In this document: in pieces, positions 48,404 through 54,673 of the stretch
How positions within the stretch are numbered: position 1 is the stretch's first letter
Layout: each line of letters starts with the position of its first letter
NCBI GenBank assembly: GCA_965242695.1
Contig: CBDESU010000001.1
Location: 544,001-608,000 of the forward strand
Direction of reading: 5' to 3'
DNA from: Cenarchaeum sp.
GTDB lineage: Archaea > Thermoproteota > Nitrososphaeria > Nitrososphaerales > Nitrosopumilaceae
DNA: 64,000 nucleotides
Position numbers and translations under genes: made by a program
Notes under the pieces: model-generated
Databases searched by the model: none
What the model saw: only the letters and a program-made list of their open reading frames with translations
What the model was told of the DNA's origin: nothing

Positions 48404-50893
48404 CTACGCGCCCCAGTCTCCTGATGCCCCGTATTGCTTCCGTTCTACGTCAGGATCGATTTCCACTGCGCGCTCGTATGCCCGTTGCGCCTCTGTATTC
48501 CATCCAGTCATGGACAGCGCCTCGGCTAGTCCAAGGTGCGCCATTGCGCTGCCGGGATCCAGCCCTGCTGCCCTGCGGTACGCCCGCGCGGCATCATCGT
48601 GCCGTCCCGCATCCGAGAGCGCCTCGGCCAGGCCTATCTGAATGCTCGCGCTGCCGGGATCCAGCCCTGCTGCCCTGCGGTACGCCCGCGCGGCATCTTC
48701 GTGCCGTCCCGCATCCGAGAGCGCCTCGGCCAGGCCTATCTGAATGCTCGCGCTGCCGGGATCCAGCCCTGCTGCCCTGCGGTACGCCCGCGCGGCATCT
48801 TCGTGCCGTCCCGCATCCGAGAGCGCCTCGGCCAGGCCTATCTGAATGCTCGCGCTGCCGGGATCCAGCCCGGCTGCCCTGCGGTACGCGGGGACGGCCT
48901 CCTCGGGCCTGCCTGCCCTTGAGAGCGCCTCGGCCAGGCCATGGTGAGCCCTTGCGCTGCCGGGATCCAGCTCGGCCGCCCTGCGGTACGCGGGGACGGC
49001 CTCCTCGGGCCTGCCTGCCCTTGAGAGCGCCTCGGCCAGGCCATGGTGAGCCCTTGCGCTGCCGGGATCCAGCTCGGCCGCCCTGCGGTACGCGGGGACG
49101 GCCTCCTCGAACCGCCCCGCGCTCAGGAGCGAGTCGGCCAGCCCGAGGTGCGCCTTCGCGCTGCCGGGATCCAGCTCGGCCGCCCTGCGGTACGCGGGGA
49201 CGGCCTCCTCGGGCCTGCCTGCCCTTGAGAGCGCCTCGGCCAGGCCATGGTGAGCCCTTGCGCTGCCGGGATCCAGCTCGGCCGCCCTGCGGTACGCGGG
49301 GACGGCCTCCTCGAACCGCCCCGCGCTCAGGAGCGAGTCGGCCAGCCCGAGGTGCGCCTTCGCGCTGCCGGGATCCAGCTCGGCCGCCCTGCGGTACGCG
49401 GGGACGGCCTCCTCGAACCGCCCCGCGCTCAGGAGCGAGTCGGCCAGCCCGAGGTGCGCCTTCGCGCTGCCGGGATCGATCTCGGCCGCCCTGCGGTACT
49501 CGGGAATCGCCGCCTCCCACTGGCCGAGGATTGCCAGCATTCCGCCCGCGCCGGCATGCGCCTCCGAGCTGCCGCCGTCAAGGTCGATCGCATCCCTGTA
49601 GTACGCCAGCGCCTTTTCGTGGCGGCCGGCCCTCGAGAGGACTCCGGCCAGCCCAAGGTGCGCCGATGCGCCGCCGAGCCTGTACCTGATGCGGGACGCC
49701 TTGTCGATCCGCACGCCGGATGAGGCGAGGCCGAGCCCCGTCCTTGCGCCCGCATCGATCGCCCCCTCGTACGAGGCGCCGGCCTCGACGTCCCTGCCCT
49801 CGGCCGCCCTTGCGTGCCCGAGCGCCACGTACGAGGCGGCATCGTCGGGGTCGATGCGTATCGCGTCTTCAAAGTGCCCCGCCGCCTCGCCGTGCCGGCC
49901 CTGCTCGGACAGGGACAGGCCCCGCGCCACGTGCGCCGACACGTCGTGGGGGTCGACCACCAGCGCGCCGTCGTACTCGGAGACCTCGAGCCTGCCGTCG
50001 GGCCCTCTTTGCATGCGCAGCGCGTACCCCCTGAACACGCGCGCGGGCGCGTACGTCGGGTCCAGCTCGATCGACCTTGCGTACAGCCTGCCGGCGTCCG
50101 CGTGGCGCCCGGCAAGCCGCGCTAGGTGCCCGAGCTCGAGATGTGCCAGGGGGTTGGCCGGGTCCAGCCGCGCGGCCTCCCGAAGCATGGCCTCGGCCTC
50201 GCCTGCCCGCCCCAGGTGGGCCAGCGAATGGCCGGCGCAGAGGTGCGCCCACACGCTCTCAGCCTCTTTCTTGATGTGGGCAAGGCACCGCCTCAGGGCG
50301 TCTTCGTACGCGGCGGCCGCGTCCCCGACGCGCCCGGCCATGTCCATGTGGCTGCCCTCCACGAGCCGCAGGGCCACAATGTCCGCGGGGCGGCCGTCGA
50401 ATATGGCGACCAGTACGGCATCGGTCGTCAGGCATGCGGCGACATCGTCGGGGATGCTGTGCGAGAGCGAGTGGACATGGGCATGCCGATCGTCGAGCAT
50501 GCCGCCGAGTCGGCGCGCGCCGCCCTCGCAGTCTAGCATCCGCAGCAGGGCGTCCAGCCCGCACTCGACGGCCGCATCCCTAGCGGCGCCCACGGTCAGG
50601 CGGACGTGCATTGCCGCATCGATGCGGGCGGCAGGGACCGATGCCTCTTCCCCGATGTCCTCTATGCGCACGTCCACGCTCCCGCCGCCGTCCCTCTTCC
50701 CGCGGTGCAGCTCCACCTCGCCCTGCAGGGCCTTTTCCACGATCGTTCCCGAGTCGCCCAGTATGGACCTCTTGTCGCGCGGGCGCGAGCCTCCCGAGTC
50801 TGCCTTGTTCTCGGCGGTCCTGACTAGGATGTCGTGGCGGCTCTGCAGCACCATGTGCGACGTGATCGGATACCGGTACCTCTTCACTGCCAT
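48404..50893 (-). CDS. TPR-repeat protein
   Basis: About ten near-identical 34-aa (102-bp) repeats 'A.AH.GLAEALS.AGR.EEAVPAYRRAAELDPGS' plus diverged N-terminal TPRs. Confidence 0.92.
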   Translation of the reverse strand: MAVKRYRYPITSHMVLQSRHDILVRTAENKADSGGSRPRDKRSILGDSGTIVEKALQGEVELHRGKRDGGGSVDVRIEDIGEEASVPAARIDAAMHVRLTVGAARDAAVECGLDALLRMLDCEGGARRLGGMLDDRHAHVHSLSHSIPDDVAACLTTDAVLVAIFDGRPADIVALRLVEGSHMDMAGRVGDAAAAYEDALRRCLAHIKKEAESVWAHLCAGHSLAHLGRAGEAEAMLREAARLDPANPLAHLELGHLARLAGRHADAGRLYARSIELDPTYAPARVFRGYALRMQRGPDGRLEVSEYDGALVVDPHDVSAHVARGLSLSEQGRHGEAAGHFEDAIRIDPDDAASYVALGHARAAEGRDVEAGASYEGAIDAGARTGLGLASSGVRIDKASRIRYRLGGASAHLGLAGVLSRAGRHEKALAYYRDAIDLDGGSSEAHAGAGGMLAILGQWEAAIPEYRRAAEIDPGSAKAHLGLADSLLSAGRFEEAVPAYRRAAELDPGSAKAHLGLADSLLSAGRFEEAVPAYRRAAELDPGSARAHHGLAEALSRAGRPEEAVPAYRRAAELDPGSAKAHLGLADSLLSAGRFEEAVPAYRRAAELDPGSARAHHGLAEALSRAGRPEEAVPAYRRAAELDPGSARAHHGLAEALSRAGRPEEAVPAYRRAAGLDPGSASIQIGLAEALSDAGRHEDAARAYRRAAGLDPGSASIQIGLAEALSDAGRHEDAARAYRRAAGLDPGSASIQIGLAEALSDAGRHDDAARAYRRAAGLDPGSAMAHLGLAEALSMTGWNTEAQRAYERAVEIDPDVERKQYGASGDWGA

Positions 50894-51229
50894 GCCGGGA
50901 GCGCGCATACGGCCCTATTTATGTATTATACCTATGTTGCATGGATATTTGACGTACAGGCTTGACGGGCGTCCGCGCGGCGCCCCGCGCCCCGCGGCGC
51001 GTGCGTCCGCACCGGCCGCACGCTCGCCTGCCATGCGGGCCTGTCACATTCCTGGGGCGCATCTAGGCGCGGGAGCGAGATCCCTGTGGCCCGCAACCGG
51101 GCGCGCCAGCAGCCTGCCGTGCAGGCGCGCGCATGATGCTCGCCGGCTGCGCCGGCGCGGGCCGGCGCATCCCAGCAGTTCGTTGTAGTTGCGCTCCGTG
51201 CCGGGCGGGGGCCCGGCCCTAGGCGGCCG

Positions 51230-51381
51230 ACGTTCCTGTGCCTGACACTGCGATTCTTCTGCCTTGCGTGCACTGCGGACGGCGCTTTTCTGGACCCCCT
51301 CATGCCGCCGTCCCTGCTTGGCATTAGTACCGGGATGCACTTCAGCTTCTTCCACACCATGGGAGGCGCGTGGGGGGCCAT
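51230..51381 (-). pseudogene. Truncated second copy of the aspartyl protease gene (5' part only)
   Basis: 'MAPHAPPMVWKKLKCIPVLMPSRDGGMRGSRKA' matches the start of the gene at 46513; similarity is lost before the DSG motif. Confidence 0.75.
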
Positions 51382-51719
51382 CACTCTACATGGAAGAACG
51401 TAGGCTCCTCGGGCCTCGCATAGATGTACTCCATAAAGGGCTCGCCCTTGCCCGCCTTCCACCCGTCCTGGTGGACGCGCCTCGGGTCCTTGCCGTGCGC
51501 CACGATCCCGCCGCCGGCCACGGCCAGCCATTCGCCCCTGTACTTTTCAAACTCCTCGGACTGCATCGATCTCAGGAACTCTAGGTTTCTTACGATGTCG
51601 TTGTCGATCCTCACTCCGGGGCCCTCGGCGGCCCACCCGCCGCACTCGTCCAGGGGATCGTACCCCGCACTGCGATCGCCGCTGTGGGTGTCCGCACCGG
51701 CCGCATCCTTGCCTGCCAT
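51381..51719 (-). CDS. DUF5678-like small protein, copy 2
   Basis: Near-identical to 46513..46851. Confidence 0.78.
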   Translation of the reverse strand: MAGKDAAGADTHSGDRSAGYDPLDECGGWAAEGPGVRIDNDIVRNLEFLRSMQSEEFEKYRGEWLAVAGGGIVAHGKDPRRVHQDGWKAGKGEPFMEYIYARPEEPTFFHVE

Positions 51720-52065
51720 TGGCGACTGCCGTCCAGCCCTCAATAAGAATTCACTGTTTTTTCACAATGCGCAACGGCGCAGGGGCGCGGCGGCCCTGCG
51801 GCCGCATCCTGGCGCGCCGGGGGTGGGTTGCGCGCAGCGCGTGCATCTGCGGCGCCGGCAGCGGGGATCACCCCTGCGATGCGCCGCCGCGCCCTGGCCG
51901 CTGGGCGCGGGGATGACCGCCCGTCCTCGGCCGCAGGCTCCGCCCGCCTGCCGGCCGCACGCGCAGGCGCGAGGCGGCCCGCTCCCCTCCCCCGTTCGCA
52001 TCCTGCATGTCCGCTACCGGGAGGTCTGCGATCGGCGGGCGCCGCCGCGCCCGCGGGCTATTCGA

Positions 52066-52383
52066 TCAACCCTTGCCGTACACTGCCTTGTGATCGCCTA
52101 CCCGTAGAAAGCGTATGCAATCGCCGCTGACACAGTACAGAATTCTGTATGATCTGCCCACCCTGCAAGCAAAGACATGGGTTGGCACTCCGTCGACGCG
52201 AATCCTTCCCTTGCTGTCCCTAGGATCCATGACATTTTCCGACATGAGCAAGTCGTCGACCGCCTGGTTTACTCGATCTACAATGTTTTTTCCCAAGCCG
52301 AGGCGCTGGCGCTCGAACTTTGGATCATACGCGGCTCTCCACCTTTTGCCCTCGCCCGATTGTCCTCTTGGTGTTTCCTTCAT
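52066..52383 (-). CDS. RelE/ParE-family toxin
   Basis: 'WRAAYDPKFERQ...VFACRVGRSYRILYCV...IRFLRVGDHKAVY'; ATGA overlap with the upstream gene. Confidence 0.8.
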   Translation of the reverse strand: MKETPRGQSGEGKRWRAAYDPKFERQRLGLGKNIVDRVNQAVDDLLMSENVMDPRDSKGRIRVDGVPTHVFACRVGRSYRILYCVSGDCIRFLRVGDHKAVYGKG

Positions 52384-53618
52384 GACTCGTCGCATCTCGT
52401 AGGGACTGTGGTCCCAGCCTCCCCTCTGATCTTGGCTACGAAGTCTGATCCATCCATCACGACCACCTCGCTGCTGGATGCGGACTCTTTTATGTCTGCC
52501 CATTCCTCGGCCGTCAGGGGAGGCGAGCGCATGCCGGACTCGATCGGAGTCTTTCCGCCCCCGCGCGGCTTGTGCGCTAGGCAGTACTCGATGTACCCGC
52601 GCGCGGATGCGTGGTCGGGATCCATTGCATGCCCGATGCCGGCAGGGGGCGGGCCGCGCTCGACGCGGGCCGCCTCCGAATCGCCGGCCCCGCCCTCGCG
52701 CGCATGCGAGTCCGGGCACCCTCCACCGTCCGGCTCGCCGCGGGATGCCCGCCGTCCGGCCCTGTCGATGCCGGCCATGGCCAGCTCGTGGTATTCGTCG
52801 ATTCCGATCGCCCGCTCGTAGGCCGACAGCGCCTCTGCATGCCGGCCGAGCGACTCGAGGGCCAGCCCGCGTCCCGCGTGCGCTGCCGCCGAGCCGCCGT
52901 CCAGCTCGACGGCCCTGTCAAAGGCGGGCAGCGCCTCTGCATGCCGGCCGAGCGACTCGAGGGCCAGCCCGCGTCCCGCGTGCGCTGCCGCCGAGCCGCC
53001 GTCCAGCTCGACGGCCCTGTCAAAGGCGGGCAGCGCCTCGGTGGGGCGTCCCGTGCCTGCCAGAACCCTTCCGCGAGCAGCATGGGTCGCGGCGGATTCC
53101 GGATCCAACCGGGCCGCCATTTTGCACGCCTCCAGTGCATCCTCGAGTCGTCCTGCGCCCGCTAGCGCAAAGGCATGCCCCGCGTGGACGTCCCCGTTGT
53201 CCGGCGCCAGTCGAATTGCCTCCTTGTACGCCACCACGGCGTCCTGGTAGCACCCGAGGCGCGTCACTGCGAGCGCGTAGTCCGCGTACGCCGGCGCGCA
53301 CTCTGGATCGCATGCGATGGCATCGCAGAATGCGTCTAGTGCCTCGCCGGGCTTTCCCAGGCCTGCAAGCGCCCTGGCGCGCCCCGCATGCGCCGGAGGA
53401 TAATCGGGGCATGCTCGCACTGCGGCGTTGCACGCGGCGAGCGCCTCGTCGTGCCGCCCGTACTTGTGCTGTAGGATGCCATGTATGGTCAGGATTGCCA
53501 CATCGGCAATGCCGCTTCCAAGCTGCTTGGAGTCCTGCACTGCCGAACCGTCCTCTTTTTCACCGGCCGGCGCATGGCGCCTACTGACCGGAGCTACTGT
53601 GACTACTGTGGGCCTCAT
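52380..53618 (-). CDS. TPR-repeat protein with a C-terminal antitoxin-like tail
   Basis: About seven TPRs, a GC-rich linker, then 'MDPDH...PPLTAEEWADIKES...MDGSDFVAKIRG'; stop overlaps the relE start. Confidence 0.8.
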   Translation of the reverse strand: MRPTVVTVAPVSRRHAPAGEKEDGSAVQDSKQLGSGIADVAILTIHGILQHKYGRHDEALAACNAAVRACPDYPPAHAGRARALAGLGKPGEALDAFCDAIACDPECAPAYADYALAVTRLGCYQDAVVAYKEAIRLAPDNGDVHAGHAFALAGAGRLEDALEACKMAARLDPESAATHAARGRVLAGTGRPTEALPAFDRAVELDGGSAAAHAGRGLALESLGRHAEALPAFDRAVELDGGSAAAHAGRGLALESLGRHAEALSAYERAIGIDEYHELAMAGIDRAGRRASRGEPDGGGCPDSHAREGGAGDSEAARVERGPPPAGIGHAMDPDHASARGYIEYCLAHKPRGGGKTPIESGMRSPPLTAEEWADIKESASSSEVVVMDGSDFVAKIRGEAGTTVPTRCDES

Positions 53619-53890
53619 TGAATTGCCGCCCCCATGCCTAGCGCACGGCGGGCACACTACCGTAGCGTATATAGCCGTTGCGCGCCCGCACGCAGGCCGC
53701 CCCCGTCCACACCCTGCGGCGCCATCTGGCCTGGGGTTGCATGATCGGCTAGGCCGCCGTGCCCCGCACATTCGGCAGGGGATGGAGGTGGACCTGCCCT
53801 GGCGCAGGGGGCGCCGGCGGCGCGGGCGCCCCGTCCCGCGCGCATGGAATCGCGGCAGGCCTTAAATACGCGCCCCCGTCCCGCGCGCGC

Positions 53891-54499
53891 ATGCGCCGCC
53901 AGGCCGCGCCGGTGCGCGGGTACGCATGCGTGCCGTACACGCACGACCACGACTCTGTGTCGCTCAAGGAGGACTGGGACCGCTCGCGCAACGTCGAGCG
54001 CATGCACTTTGTGACGGCCACGTTCTCTCCCGACTGCCTGCCGTACTTTGACTCCATATCGAACCACTACATACTCGCGCAGTTCCGTGACTGCACCCGC
54101 GCGCTGCGCGACATCGAGAGGCGCGGCCACGAAAAGGCCTCGTTCGTGTTCGGCATCGACGAGGACCTGTTCGAGCGCGAGGCGACGGGCGCCGTGAACT
54201 TTGTGTCGGTGTACTACCTAGAGTACGGCGAGACGGACGAGGACGTCGGCGAGGTGGCCTTTGTCATATCGCGCAAGGACAAGGTCGGCAGGGCGGGGGT
54301 GGGGCGCATGGACCTGCACTCGGCCACGCGCCGGTTCGACTTTCCGTACGCAGACCGGATAGTCGTGCTGGAGGTCTCGAGCGACAAGGGCCCGCAGAGC
54401 ATCAACAAGTACTGCGAAAAGACGCGGCGCGACGTGTGCCGCATCGGGATTACCATGACAAACCTGGTCAGCCTGTCGCTGCTCGAGCGGCTGAAGTGA
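53891..54499 (+). CDS. Hypothetical protein, probably conserved in Thaumarchaeota
   Basis: TATA 'ttaaata' about 25 bp upstream; strongly coding-like codon usage. Confidence 0.75.
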   Translation: MRRQAAPVRGYACVPYTHDHDSVSLKEDWDRSRNVERMHFVTATFSPDCLPYFDSISNHYILAQFRDCTRALRDIERRGHEKASFVFGIDEDLFEREATGAVNFVSVYYLEYGETDEDVGEVAFVISRKDKVGRAGVGRMDLHSATRRFDFPYADRIVVLEVSSDKGPQSINKYCEKTRRDVCRIGITMTNLVSLSLLERLK

Positions 54500-54673
54500 G
54501 CGGCTGAAGTGAGCGGCTGAAGTGAGCGGCTGAAGTGAGCGGCTGAAGTGAGCGGCTGAAGTGAGCGGCTGAAGTGAGCGGCTGAAGTGAGCGGCTGAAG
54601 TGAGCGGCTGAAGTGAGCGGCTGAAGTGAGCGGCTGAAGTGAGCGGCTGAAGTGAGCGGCTGAAGTGAGCGGC
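54485..54673 (+). repeat. 13-bp perfect tandem repeat GAGCGGCTGAAGT, 14 copies plus a 7-bp partial
   Basis: Counted directly; the first units include the last codons and stop of the upstream gene. Confidence 0.97.

Follow-up and report, generated by a model that had tools for sequence, protein, structure and literature searches.

A RelE-fold toxin gene coupled to a TPR protein with an antitoxin-like tail in a Cenarchaeum genome

Classical type II antitoxins consist of a DNA-binding domain and a toxin-binding tail. A different arrangement is encoded in a stretch of 64,000 nt from Cenarchaeum sp. (assembly GCA_965242695.1, contig CBDESU010000001.1, positions 544,001 to 608,000 of the forward strand), which we call the window and number from its first letter. 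On the minus strand of the window, a gene for a tetratricopeptide repeat (TPR) protein that ends in a short acidic tail runs into a gene for a small RelE-like protein, which raises the question of whether a TPR protein can carry the antitoxin of a RelE-like toxin. Our data favor, with a probability that we put at roughly 0.7, a two-gene type II toxin–antitoxin (TA) cassette of the RelBE kind, in which a minimal antitoxin peptide is tethered to a TPR array. Below, P0001 is the TPR–tail fusion protein, P0002 the RelE-like protein and P0003 the last 82 amino acids (aa) of P0001; other P numbers are database protein representatives, L numbers are excised loci, G000 is the genome of the window and G440 that of a second species in the same genus.

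Architecture of the two genes

P0001 is composed of a TPR array, a disordered linker and an acidic tail of 82 aa (52383–52628), which starts A-MDPDH and includes LTAEEWADIKES and DGSDFVAKI. Its frame is open further upstream, to 53771; the ATG at 53618 is the start common to the paralogues described below and lies ~50 nt below a conserved TATA-like box (Table 1), likely the archaeal promoter of the two-gene cassette. At the other end, the stop codon TGA (52380–52382) overlaps the ATG of the RelE-like gene (52381–52383) as ATGA, and a second in-frame ATG of that gene, 12 nt upstream, is likewise conserved. The charges of the two products are complementary, with an isoelectric point (pI) of 4.85 for the tail and of 9.81 for P0002. 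An earlier note on this DNA, made from the sequence alone, had placed the TPR array and an antitoxin-like tail in a single open reading frame (ORF), and translation of the ORF together with a Pfam search agrees with it down to the coordinates and the residues that it quoted.

Pfam places the TPRs over approximately residues 40–280 of P0001 (TPR_1, E 3.4e-35; TPR_2, E 1.2e-30), corresponding to seven to eight repeats. In an AlphaFold2 (AF2) model built with seven homologues, residues 1–34 are disordered and the superhelix that follows is predicted with local confidence values (pLDDT) of 75–95; residues 294–338 are again disordered, with short low-confidence helices at residues 339–348, 370–380 and 390–400. 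A Foldseek search with the full-length model returned generic TPR superhelices only (consensus TPR, OGT TPR domain). Searches of P0001 against Pfam and NCBIfam found no DNA-binding family, and its N-terminal part is the TPR superhelix. Within the array, a 102-nt TPR duplication, 98% identical, was located at 52820–53039 with the tandem repeat program TRF.

The downstream gene encodes a protein with the RelE fold. A protein database search with P0002 yielded 12 homologues among 14 candidates, and for two close relatives, P0004 and P0007, precomputed assignments to PF06769 and PF05016 (YoeB or ParE domains) exist. When a profile of 19 P0002 homologues (A2) was compared with solved chains, it matched RelE of T. 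thermophilus (2khe, E 5.8e-9), RelE3 of M. jannaschii (3bpq, E 8.1e-4), and YoeB and Rv2866 at about 2–3e-3. The AF2 model of P0002 (pLDDT 85, predicted TM-score 0.76) has a strand at residues 16–19, helices at 21–28 and 32–47, four strands over 57–97 and a helix at 98–102, and thereby shows the two N-terminal helices on a four-stranded antiparallel sheet and the short C-terminal helix by which we define the RelE fold. Foldseek gave 18 matches to this model at E ≤ 0.001; the 17 listed are RelE, YafQ and YoeB toxins, TA complexes and H. pylori toxin-like proteins, and the best are 2khe RelE (E 9.9e-6), YafQ, RelE2, aRelE and YoeB. Collectively, the profile, the model and the structural matches confirm that the overlapping neighbor pointed out in the earlier note is RelE-like.

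Among the 19 toxin sequences, R80 and H98 are invariant and Y102 is nearly so, and in P0002 the arginine of the YRI motif and the terminal tyrosine align with 2khe. R80, H98 and Y102 may be the equivalents of the catalytic residues R61, R81 and Y87 of E. coli RelE. By its family, P0002 would be a ribosome-dependent mRNA endonuclease, an RNase activity predicted from the fold. The ratio of nonsynonymous to synonymous substitution (dN/dS) among the toxins of the window copy, one paralogue and the G440 orthologue is 0.19–0.27. A scan of the collected genome contigs with P0002 returned two distant loci only, one in a Nitrosopumilaceae metagenome-assembled genome and one in Pseudoduganella.

Table 1. 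Features of the cassette, in window coordinates
Feature	Position	Strand	Basis or remark
TATA-like box CTATATAC (coding strand)	53667..53674	minus	~50–56 nt 5' of the TPR start; among the few upstream blocks kept in three paralogous cassettes
TPR–linker–putative antitoxin fusion gene (P0001, 412 aa)	52380..53618	minus	ORF, Pfam, recurring architecture
TPR superhelix, aa 35–292, 15 helices	52743..53516	minus	Pfam, AF2, Foldseek
Disordered GC-rich linker, aa 293–330 (~50 aa counted from the last TPR motif)	52629..52742	minus	AF2 pLDDT <50
Motif 1, aa 331–353, AMDPDHxSARGYIEYCxxHxPR	52560..52628	minus	Alignments A1 and A5; invariant internal Met at 52623–52625
Motif 2, aa 364–398, R-S-PPLTxEExADIxES...V-M-DGSxFVxxIR, candidate antitoxin module proper	52425..52529	minus	Gapless alignment to the small ORFs of relatives
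RelE-fold toxin gene (P0002, 105 aa)	52066..52383	minus	Profile, AF2, Foldseek

Conservation of the fusion

G000 (3.89 Mb in two contigs) contains three paralogous cassettes of TPR array, linker, tail and RelE-like gene, whose DNA similarity spans from ~60 nt 5' of the TPR start through the toxin stop and whose stop and start codons overlap by 4 nt in each case (ATGA, GTGA and ATGA). When the TPR-type tail by itself (A5) was searched in six frames through 401 genomes of the class, only G000 and G440 gave matches. The G440 tail is 56% identical and lies in frame behind a TPR array and a 53-aa linker, and the RelE-like gene of G440 overlaps the fusion stop by 11–32 nt. The overlap of the two genes is preserved in all four cassettes, where toxin and fusion are separate ORFs and never one polypeptide, and all four genomic loci found through the tail alone are TPR fusions. 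A scan of metagenome contigs with A5 gave no match. Seven metagenome fusion proteins were recovered, namely P0015–P0018 (4 matches among 22 candidates), P0023 (a fragment), P0063 and P0076. Beyond the copy described in the earlier note, the architecture therefore occurs in two further cassettes of G000, in G440 and in seven metagenome proteins.

An assembly artefact or a hidden stop as the source of the fusion was ruled out by the paralogues, by G440 and by contigs of two other studies. These contigs (runs X2 and X6) cover 52000–52856 with zero indels, and include the stretch 52630–52780 across which the earlier note had wished reads to be verified. Over 52000–52856, the X6 strain carries 21 substitutions; the ORF is still open and the toxin protein is identical. 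A stop between the TPRs and the tail, which the earlier note had named as fatal to its proposal, was found neither in the four genomic loci nor in the contigs of the two other studies. The contigs of all runs compared break within the TPR repeat (52810–53010) and none spans the whole gene; because they break in the near-perfect 102-nt duplication, the number of TPR repeats rests on the assembly.

The linker also bears on the fusion. Its lengths are 50, 53, 52 and 53 aa, with deletions of 12 and 27 aa in P0017 and P0018, and the length changes between copies are always multiples of three. Since every length change preserves the frame, the linker argues for the fusion. The open frame of the linker was tried as a proof of fusion and dropped, because all three frames are open there and the GC content of the three codon positions (GC1/2/3) is flat; openness by itself is weak proof.

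Selection on the cassette differs from part to part. Between paralogues, dN/dS is 0.18–0.27 for the TPR array, 0.62–0.88 for the linker, 0.34–0.51 for motif 1 and 0.34–0.92 for motif 2. These ratios, together with those of the toxin, indicate purifying selection on the TPR array and the toxin and almost neutral evolution of the linker. The TPR array is the most conserved part of the cassette, with 75–78% identity among the three paralogues. We also calculated the mean column entropy in ten fusion proteins, with the repeat register taken from the Pfam match, and obtained 0.55 for helix-A positions 2, 5, 9, 12 and 13 and 1.10 for helix-B positions 18, 22, 25, 26, 29 and 33. Helix A of a TPR lines the groove of the superhelix. 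The conservation of this groove-side helix over the outer helix suggests that the array has a conserved partner.

Motif 1, at the start of the tail, is as conserved as the TPR array (entropy 0.59 vs 0.60). It is restricted to the TPR-linked form of the tail and resembles a degenerate segment between TPR repeats. A hidden Markov model (HMM) of motif 1, run against the 59,312 six-frame ORFs of G000, detected the three cassettes only, in addition to partial matches inside the TPR array.

Kinship of the tail

A search of 201 genomes of the order with P0002 gave a match in 13. Upstream of the RelE-like genes of these relatives (86–93 aa) lie tiny ORFs of 42–54 aa (79–80 aa in a distant group), and the ORFs of 42–54 aa align without gaps to the last ~40 aa of the tail, through (S)PPLTxEEIxDIxE..., a spacing of ~10 residues and S/T-xxEFxxxL. 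The statement of the earlier note that such antitoxins are normally small stand-alone proteins encoded upstream is thus correct for this family, as the last ~40 aa of the tail are kin to ORFs of exactly this kind. P0003 alone, searched against the same 201 genomes, detected only G000 and two chance-level matches. A 45-position mixed profile of the motif, which includes the window tail itself (A4), matched 14 of the 201 genomes, among them 9 of 40 other genomes of the family. Only in G000 is the match surrounded by long open frames (243–493 aa); elsewhere the frames are mostly of 43–95 aa, with a few weak matches in longer ones.

The A4 search returned 30 loci, of which 28 retained the tail match with a separate HMM. 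A RelE-like gene, detected with the A2 HMM, lies directly downstream on the same strand in 22 of these 28 loci, and several of the 22 had been used in building neither profile. Among 1.84 billion representative proteins, A4 found 83 matches at E ≤ 1e-3, and 66 of them are at most 100 aa long. The tail and 13 related small antitoxins gave chance-level matches only when compared with Pfam and NCBIfam at E ≤ 1, and no described antitoxin family (RelB, DinJ, Phd/YefM, ParD, HigA) was among them; the tail profile had no match among solved chains, and a search of the ESM Atlas with the tail gave nothing above 0.8. From this pattern of motif and position, the tail appears to belong to a small antitoxin family that is absent from Pfam and NCBIfam.

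In order to assess the pairing of tail and toxin, their complex was predicted from residues 331–412 of P0001 and P0002. The score was 0.52, compared with 0.01 for the best of three controls; at least 69% of contacts are shared between runs, with a partner pLDDT of at least 55. Of 80 solved complexes, 58 reach the mark that this score passes, as do 2 of 110 mismatched pairs; only 7 of the solved complexes, but both passing mismatches, reach it with scores of 0.60 or lower. To the pair of tail and RelE that the earlier note had wished to see modelled, the prediction lends weak support, in a score range that also holds both false passes. Kinship, position, charge and, weakly, the predicted complex suggest that the tail would bind and neutralize the toxin.

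The same peptide also ends proteins of quite different composition. In G000, an Mrr_N domain (E 3.6e-13) is followed by a linker and the tail in a gene (L004 1495–2511, minus strand; G000:C1:2096956–2097972) that is immediately followed by a fourth RelE-like gene (45% identity to P0002). By its domains, the Mrr_N gene would encode a more classical antitoxin of the same family, a DNA binder plus tail. A second gene (L009 838–1683, plus strand; G000:C1:1915278–1916123) joins a SAD_SRA-like domain (E 3.3e-6, below cut-off) to a C-terminal tail; no RelE-like gene lies downstream of it, and the next ORF (155 aa) matches no family. P0053, P0056 and P0071 are homologues of this SAD_SRA-like form in organisms of lower GC content; the SAD_SRA scores are 21–27 bits against a Pfam cut-off of 30.7.

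Among the 83 A4 matches, 17 exceed 100 aa, and two of these, P0021 and P0068, are repeat proteins that we judged spurious. In the remaining 15, the motif lies in the C-terminal part, mostly ~10 residues or less from the end (22–25 residues before it in P0054 and P0084). Three of the 15 are TPR proteins, three carry Mrr_N (P0030, P0057, P0084), three are SAD_SRA-like, two are nuclease-like (P0045 and P0070, whose VRR_NUC/NucS_C-like matches are weak or none) and four have no family. With Mrr_N, SAD_SRA-like and nuclease-like proteins all ending in it, the antitoxin peptide appears to be a portable C-terminal module.

Readings of the cassette and its meaning

In the cassette as we read it, an acidic peptide of ~40 aa, which in related archaea is the whole antitoxin, hangs at the C terminus of a TPR array of seven to eight repeats on a flexible tether of ~40–50 aa. 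The tethered peptide would fold onto the RelE-like protein and block it, as RelB-type tails do. Where classical antitoxins have a DNA-binding domain, and the sister fusions an Mrr_N or SRA-like domain, this one has the TPR array, which may couple the stability or availability of the antitoxin to a conserved partner, a protein or peptide held in the groove. Motif 1 of the cassette itself, or a factor of the cell, may be that partner.

Several observations weigh against this reading. Taken alone, P0002 falls below the curated cut-offs of its families, with 21.5 bits against 27.9 for TIGR02385 (RelE_StbE) and 12.8 bits against 24.4 for PF24732 (ParE_like). The homology of the tail is significant only with the mixed profile A4; an HMM built from the small antitoxins of seven relatives gives the window tail an E value of 2.6 among the 59,312 six-frame ORFs of G000, where its best match is the SRA-like fusion (E 1.7e-4), and the case for the tail as an antitoxin thus rests on motif and position. 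The complex prediction, as described above, passed weakly. Six of the 28 tail loci have no RelE-like gene downstream, including the SRA-like fusion and a degenerate fourth TPR copy, which leaves room for other partners or uses of the peptide. In composition, the linker resembles non-coding DNA: it has a GC content of ~77–80% and no codon-phase signal. The second cassette of G000 (L006) has a 1-nt deletion in its toxin gene (at ~1900–1960) that shifts the frame before the conserved ..RFLRVGDHKxVYG end; its TPR–tail gene is intact, and the deletion reflects either decay to a toxin pseudogene or an assembly error. Finally, G000 holds at least 71 loci with similar TPR arrays, many of them clustered at C1:1.17–1.24 Mb, so a chance fusion with an abundant type of gene is conceivable.

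Three other explanations have to be weighed against the tethered antitoxin. The earlier note had proposed a sensor-gated system, in which binding of a viral or host protein by the TPR array releases the mRNase. In an abortive-infection module of this kind, the trigger would pull the tethered peptide off RelE, or expose it to proteolysis, and so free the RNase. TPR arrays do bind proteins and peptides, and the presence of the same peptide on the recognition domains of type IV restriction (Mrr_N, SAD_SRA-like and, weakly, VRR_NUC/NucS_C-like) makes its attachment point look like a swappable sensor slot. There are also precedents in the joining of RelE to a sensor domain in Cami1 (PDB 8phb, among the Foldseek matches) and in the fused CapRel system, whose antitoxin side is established to sense a capsid protein of a phage (PMC9712102); the DNA occurs in sponge metagenomes, and exposure to phages in sponges is discussed in PMC7848895. 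We nevertheless regard this gate as doubtful. Purifying selection acts on the TPR array, no other part of the cassette is as conserved, and the variation of the array falls on the outer helix B and less on the groove side, a pattern that fits a conserved partner better than a sensor in an arms race. Mrr_N may also be a plain operator-binding winged helix-turn-helix, and next to the window copy, where the neighbors are a DUF5678 gene, an ilvA-like gene and a further TPR gene, we saw no defence island.

The earlier note had also raised a short isoform, which may exist, and it is conceivable that a product started at an internal Met, either M332 or a Met a few codons upstream, is the working antitoxin. 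The TPR–tail read-through would then be a tolerated by-product, left when a TPR gene lost its stop in front of a small antitoxin gene. M332 is invariant in all seven rows of alignment A1, and AMDP is found in G440, P0019, P0020, P0023, P0063 and P0076 as well; synonymous divergence (pS) near M332 is below that of the TPR array (0.12–0.25 vs 0.27–0.46), the linker is nearly neutral and without a codon-phase signal, and 42–54 aa suffice at the equivalent position in relatives. Two metagenome gene calls, P0019 with 96 aa and P0020 with 93 aa, have their starts shortly before AMDPD, but they may be truncated calls. We hold it to be distinctly unlikely that such an isoform is the working antitoxin. 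No copy has a stop, so ribosomes that translate the selected TPR array must run into the tail, and the linker indels are in frame in all four genomic loci. A conserved promoter-like block is present only 5' of the TPR array, no conserved Shine-Dalgarno-like block was seen by eye before M332 in the paralogue alignment, and motif 1 occurs only with the TPR array, which ties the two parts together.

It is very improbable, in our estimate, that the module is decaying or domesticated, with a toxin that is no longer an active RNase or a pair that is no longer a TA system, and with another role for the TPR–tail protein in a TPR-rich symbiont. The frameshifted toxin of L006 and the abundance of TPR loci in the genome would fit such decay, as would the fourth TPR copy (L008/L065; G000:C1:258200–259393, minus strand), whose TPR array is 54% identical, which retains only the start of the antitoxin motif, SPPLTPEEWADI, and lacks a toxin gene, and which is probably a decayed cassette. 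Against this, the toxins of the window copy, a paralogue and G440 show the low dN/dS given above and retain R80, H98 and Y102, the X6 toxin protein is unchanged despite 21 nucleotide changes in the stretch, and the overlap of the two genes is preserved in all four cassettes. Taken together, these results favor the tethered antitoxin.

Compared with solved archaeal and bacterial RelBE pairs (1wmi, aRelE–aRelB of P. horikoshii; 3bpq, RelBE3 of M. jannaschii; 2khe, T. thermophilus; 4fxe, E. coli), the window cassette has in common the RelE fold and the profile match, an antitoxin gene that lies upstream of the toxin gene and overlaps it, an acidic and mostly disordered antitoxin segment, and a basic toxin. 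It differs in that its antitoxin segment has no match to RelB, Phd or ParD, has no DNA-binding domain (ribbon-helix-helix, helix-turn-helix, AbrB, Phd/YefM) and sits on a 258-aa TPR array. The pairs of a minimal antitoxin and a RelE-like protein in related ammonia-oxidizing archaea are closer. They belong to the same toxin subfamily (33–38% identity, ending ..RVCDHKSVYGKD) and share the antitoxin motif, but there the peptide is the whole protein (frames of 43–95 aa), whereas in the window and in G440 it is the C terminus of a TPR protein and is accompanied by motif 1. We know of no published name for these minimal pairs. The sister fusions (Mrr_N-, SAD_SRA-like- and nuclease-like-tail) carry the same C-terminal module on a linker; their N-terminal domains bind DNA and could be classical operator binders, and in this the TPR form differs from them, as TPR is not a DNA-binding fold. 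From these comparisons, the cassette is best described as a type II RelBE system with a non-canonical, domain-swapped antitoxin, an unusual but conserved design.

Two systems with sensor domains offer partial parallels. In CapRel(SJ46) (PMC9712102), the antitoxin element is located on a larger polypeptide that doubles as a sensor of a phage protein, and CapRel is thus the model for a gated cassette; its toxin and antitoxin form one chain and the toxin is of the RelA/SpoT type, whereas the window has separate genes and a RelE-like toxin. Cami1 (CARF–RelE; 8phb and 8phj are among the Foldseek matches) places a ribosome-targeting RNase of the RelE fold under a sensor domain, but there the sensor forms one chain with the toxin and recognizes cyclic oligoadenylate, whereas in the window it is the antitoxin that bears the additional domain, a TPR array. 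No description of a TPR-fused antitoxin was found in the literature searched, a search that had most subscription journals outside its coverage. In the passages of 10.1101/2023.12.08.570793 and PMC3710099 available to us, TPR genes appear only as neighbors of, or fusions to, other toxin families. Passages of PMC7848895 treat the TPR and TA content of sponge-associated Thaumarchaeota in a general way and make no mention of the TPR–tail–RelE architecture.

G000 encodes an archaeal AmoA (E 2e-118) and is therefore from an ammonia-oxidizing archaeon; the window stretch is present in sequencing runs of five studies, and the readably labelled ones are sponge metagenomes. None of the runs listed is recorded as RNA. 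With 3.9 Mb and 67.5% GC, G000 is larger than most genomes of the same family in the collection (1.1–2.2 Mb), and other large genomes in the genus or family are G440 (3.7 Mb), G362 (3.2 Mb) and G092 (4.3 Mb). Around the cassette, the gene just downstream of the RelE-like gene (51381–51743, minus strand) encodes a DUF5678 protein of 120 aa (E 3e-9), with no obvious partner gene seen. A TPR gene of 834 aa follows at 48404–50908 (minus strand), ~1.2 kb downstream of the toxin, and is built of 102-nt (34-aa) units in 9.7 copies with 89% identity; it counts among the TPR loci of G000 given above. On the other side, a perfect 13-nt tandem repeat, GAGCGGCTGAAGT, extends over 54485–54673 (14.5 copies, 100% matches), between a family-less ORF at 53954–54499 (plus strand) and the ilvA-like gene, which encodes PALP and ACT domains.

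A broader idea, which we put forward tentatively and consider unlikely, is that the RelE-neutralizing peptide of 40 aa would be a leash hung on interchangeable recognition domains, the engagement of a ligand deciding whether RelE is held or released. The TPR array would then recognize a protein or peptide, and the Mrr_N, SRA-like and nuclease-like domains would recognize DNA or modified DNA. Such a design would operate in ammonia-oxidizing archaea, would have expanded in the large-genome forms of sponge metagenomes and would serve abortive infection or stress arrest.

The tail alone would represent the ancestral antitoxin, at 42–54 aa among the smallest known, which was later attached to very different domains. 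The family to which it appears to belong lies outside Pfam and NCBIfam and is currently missed by genome annotation. TA biology is, to our knowledge, little studied in archaea, and for a few of the TPR genes that are so numerous in sponge symbionts the cassettes suggest a definite function that can be tested. If the TPR array does control the hold of the tail on RelE, the cassette would be a natural RelBE system of two genes, and an archaeal one, that senses through its antitoxin; and the leash, if true, would amount to modular antitoxin-side sensing, so far undescribed for RelBE systems and for archaea.

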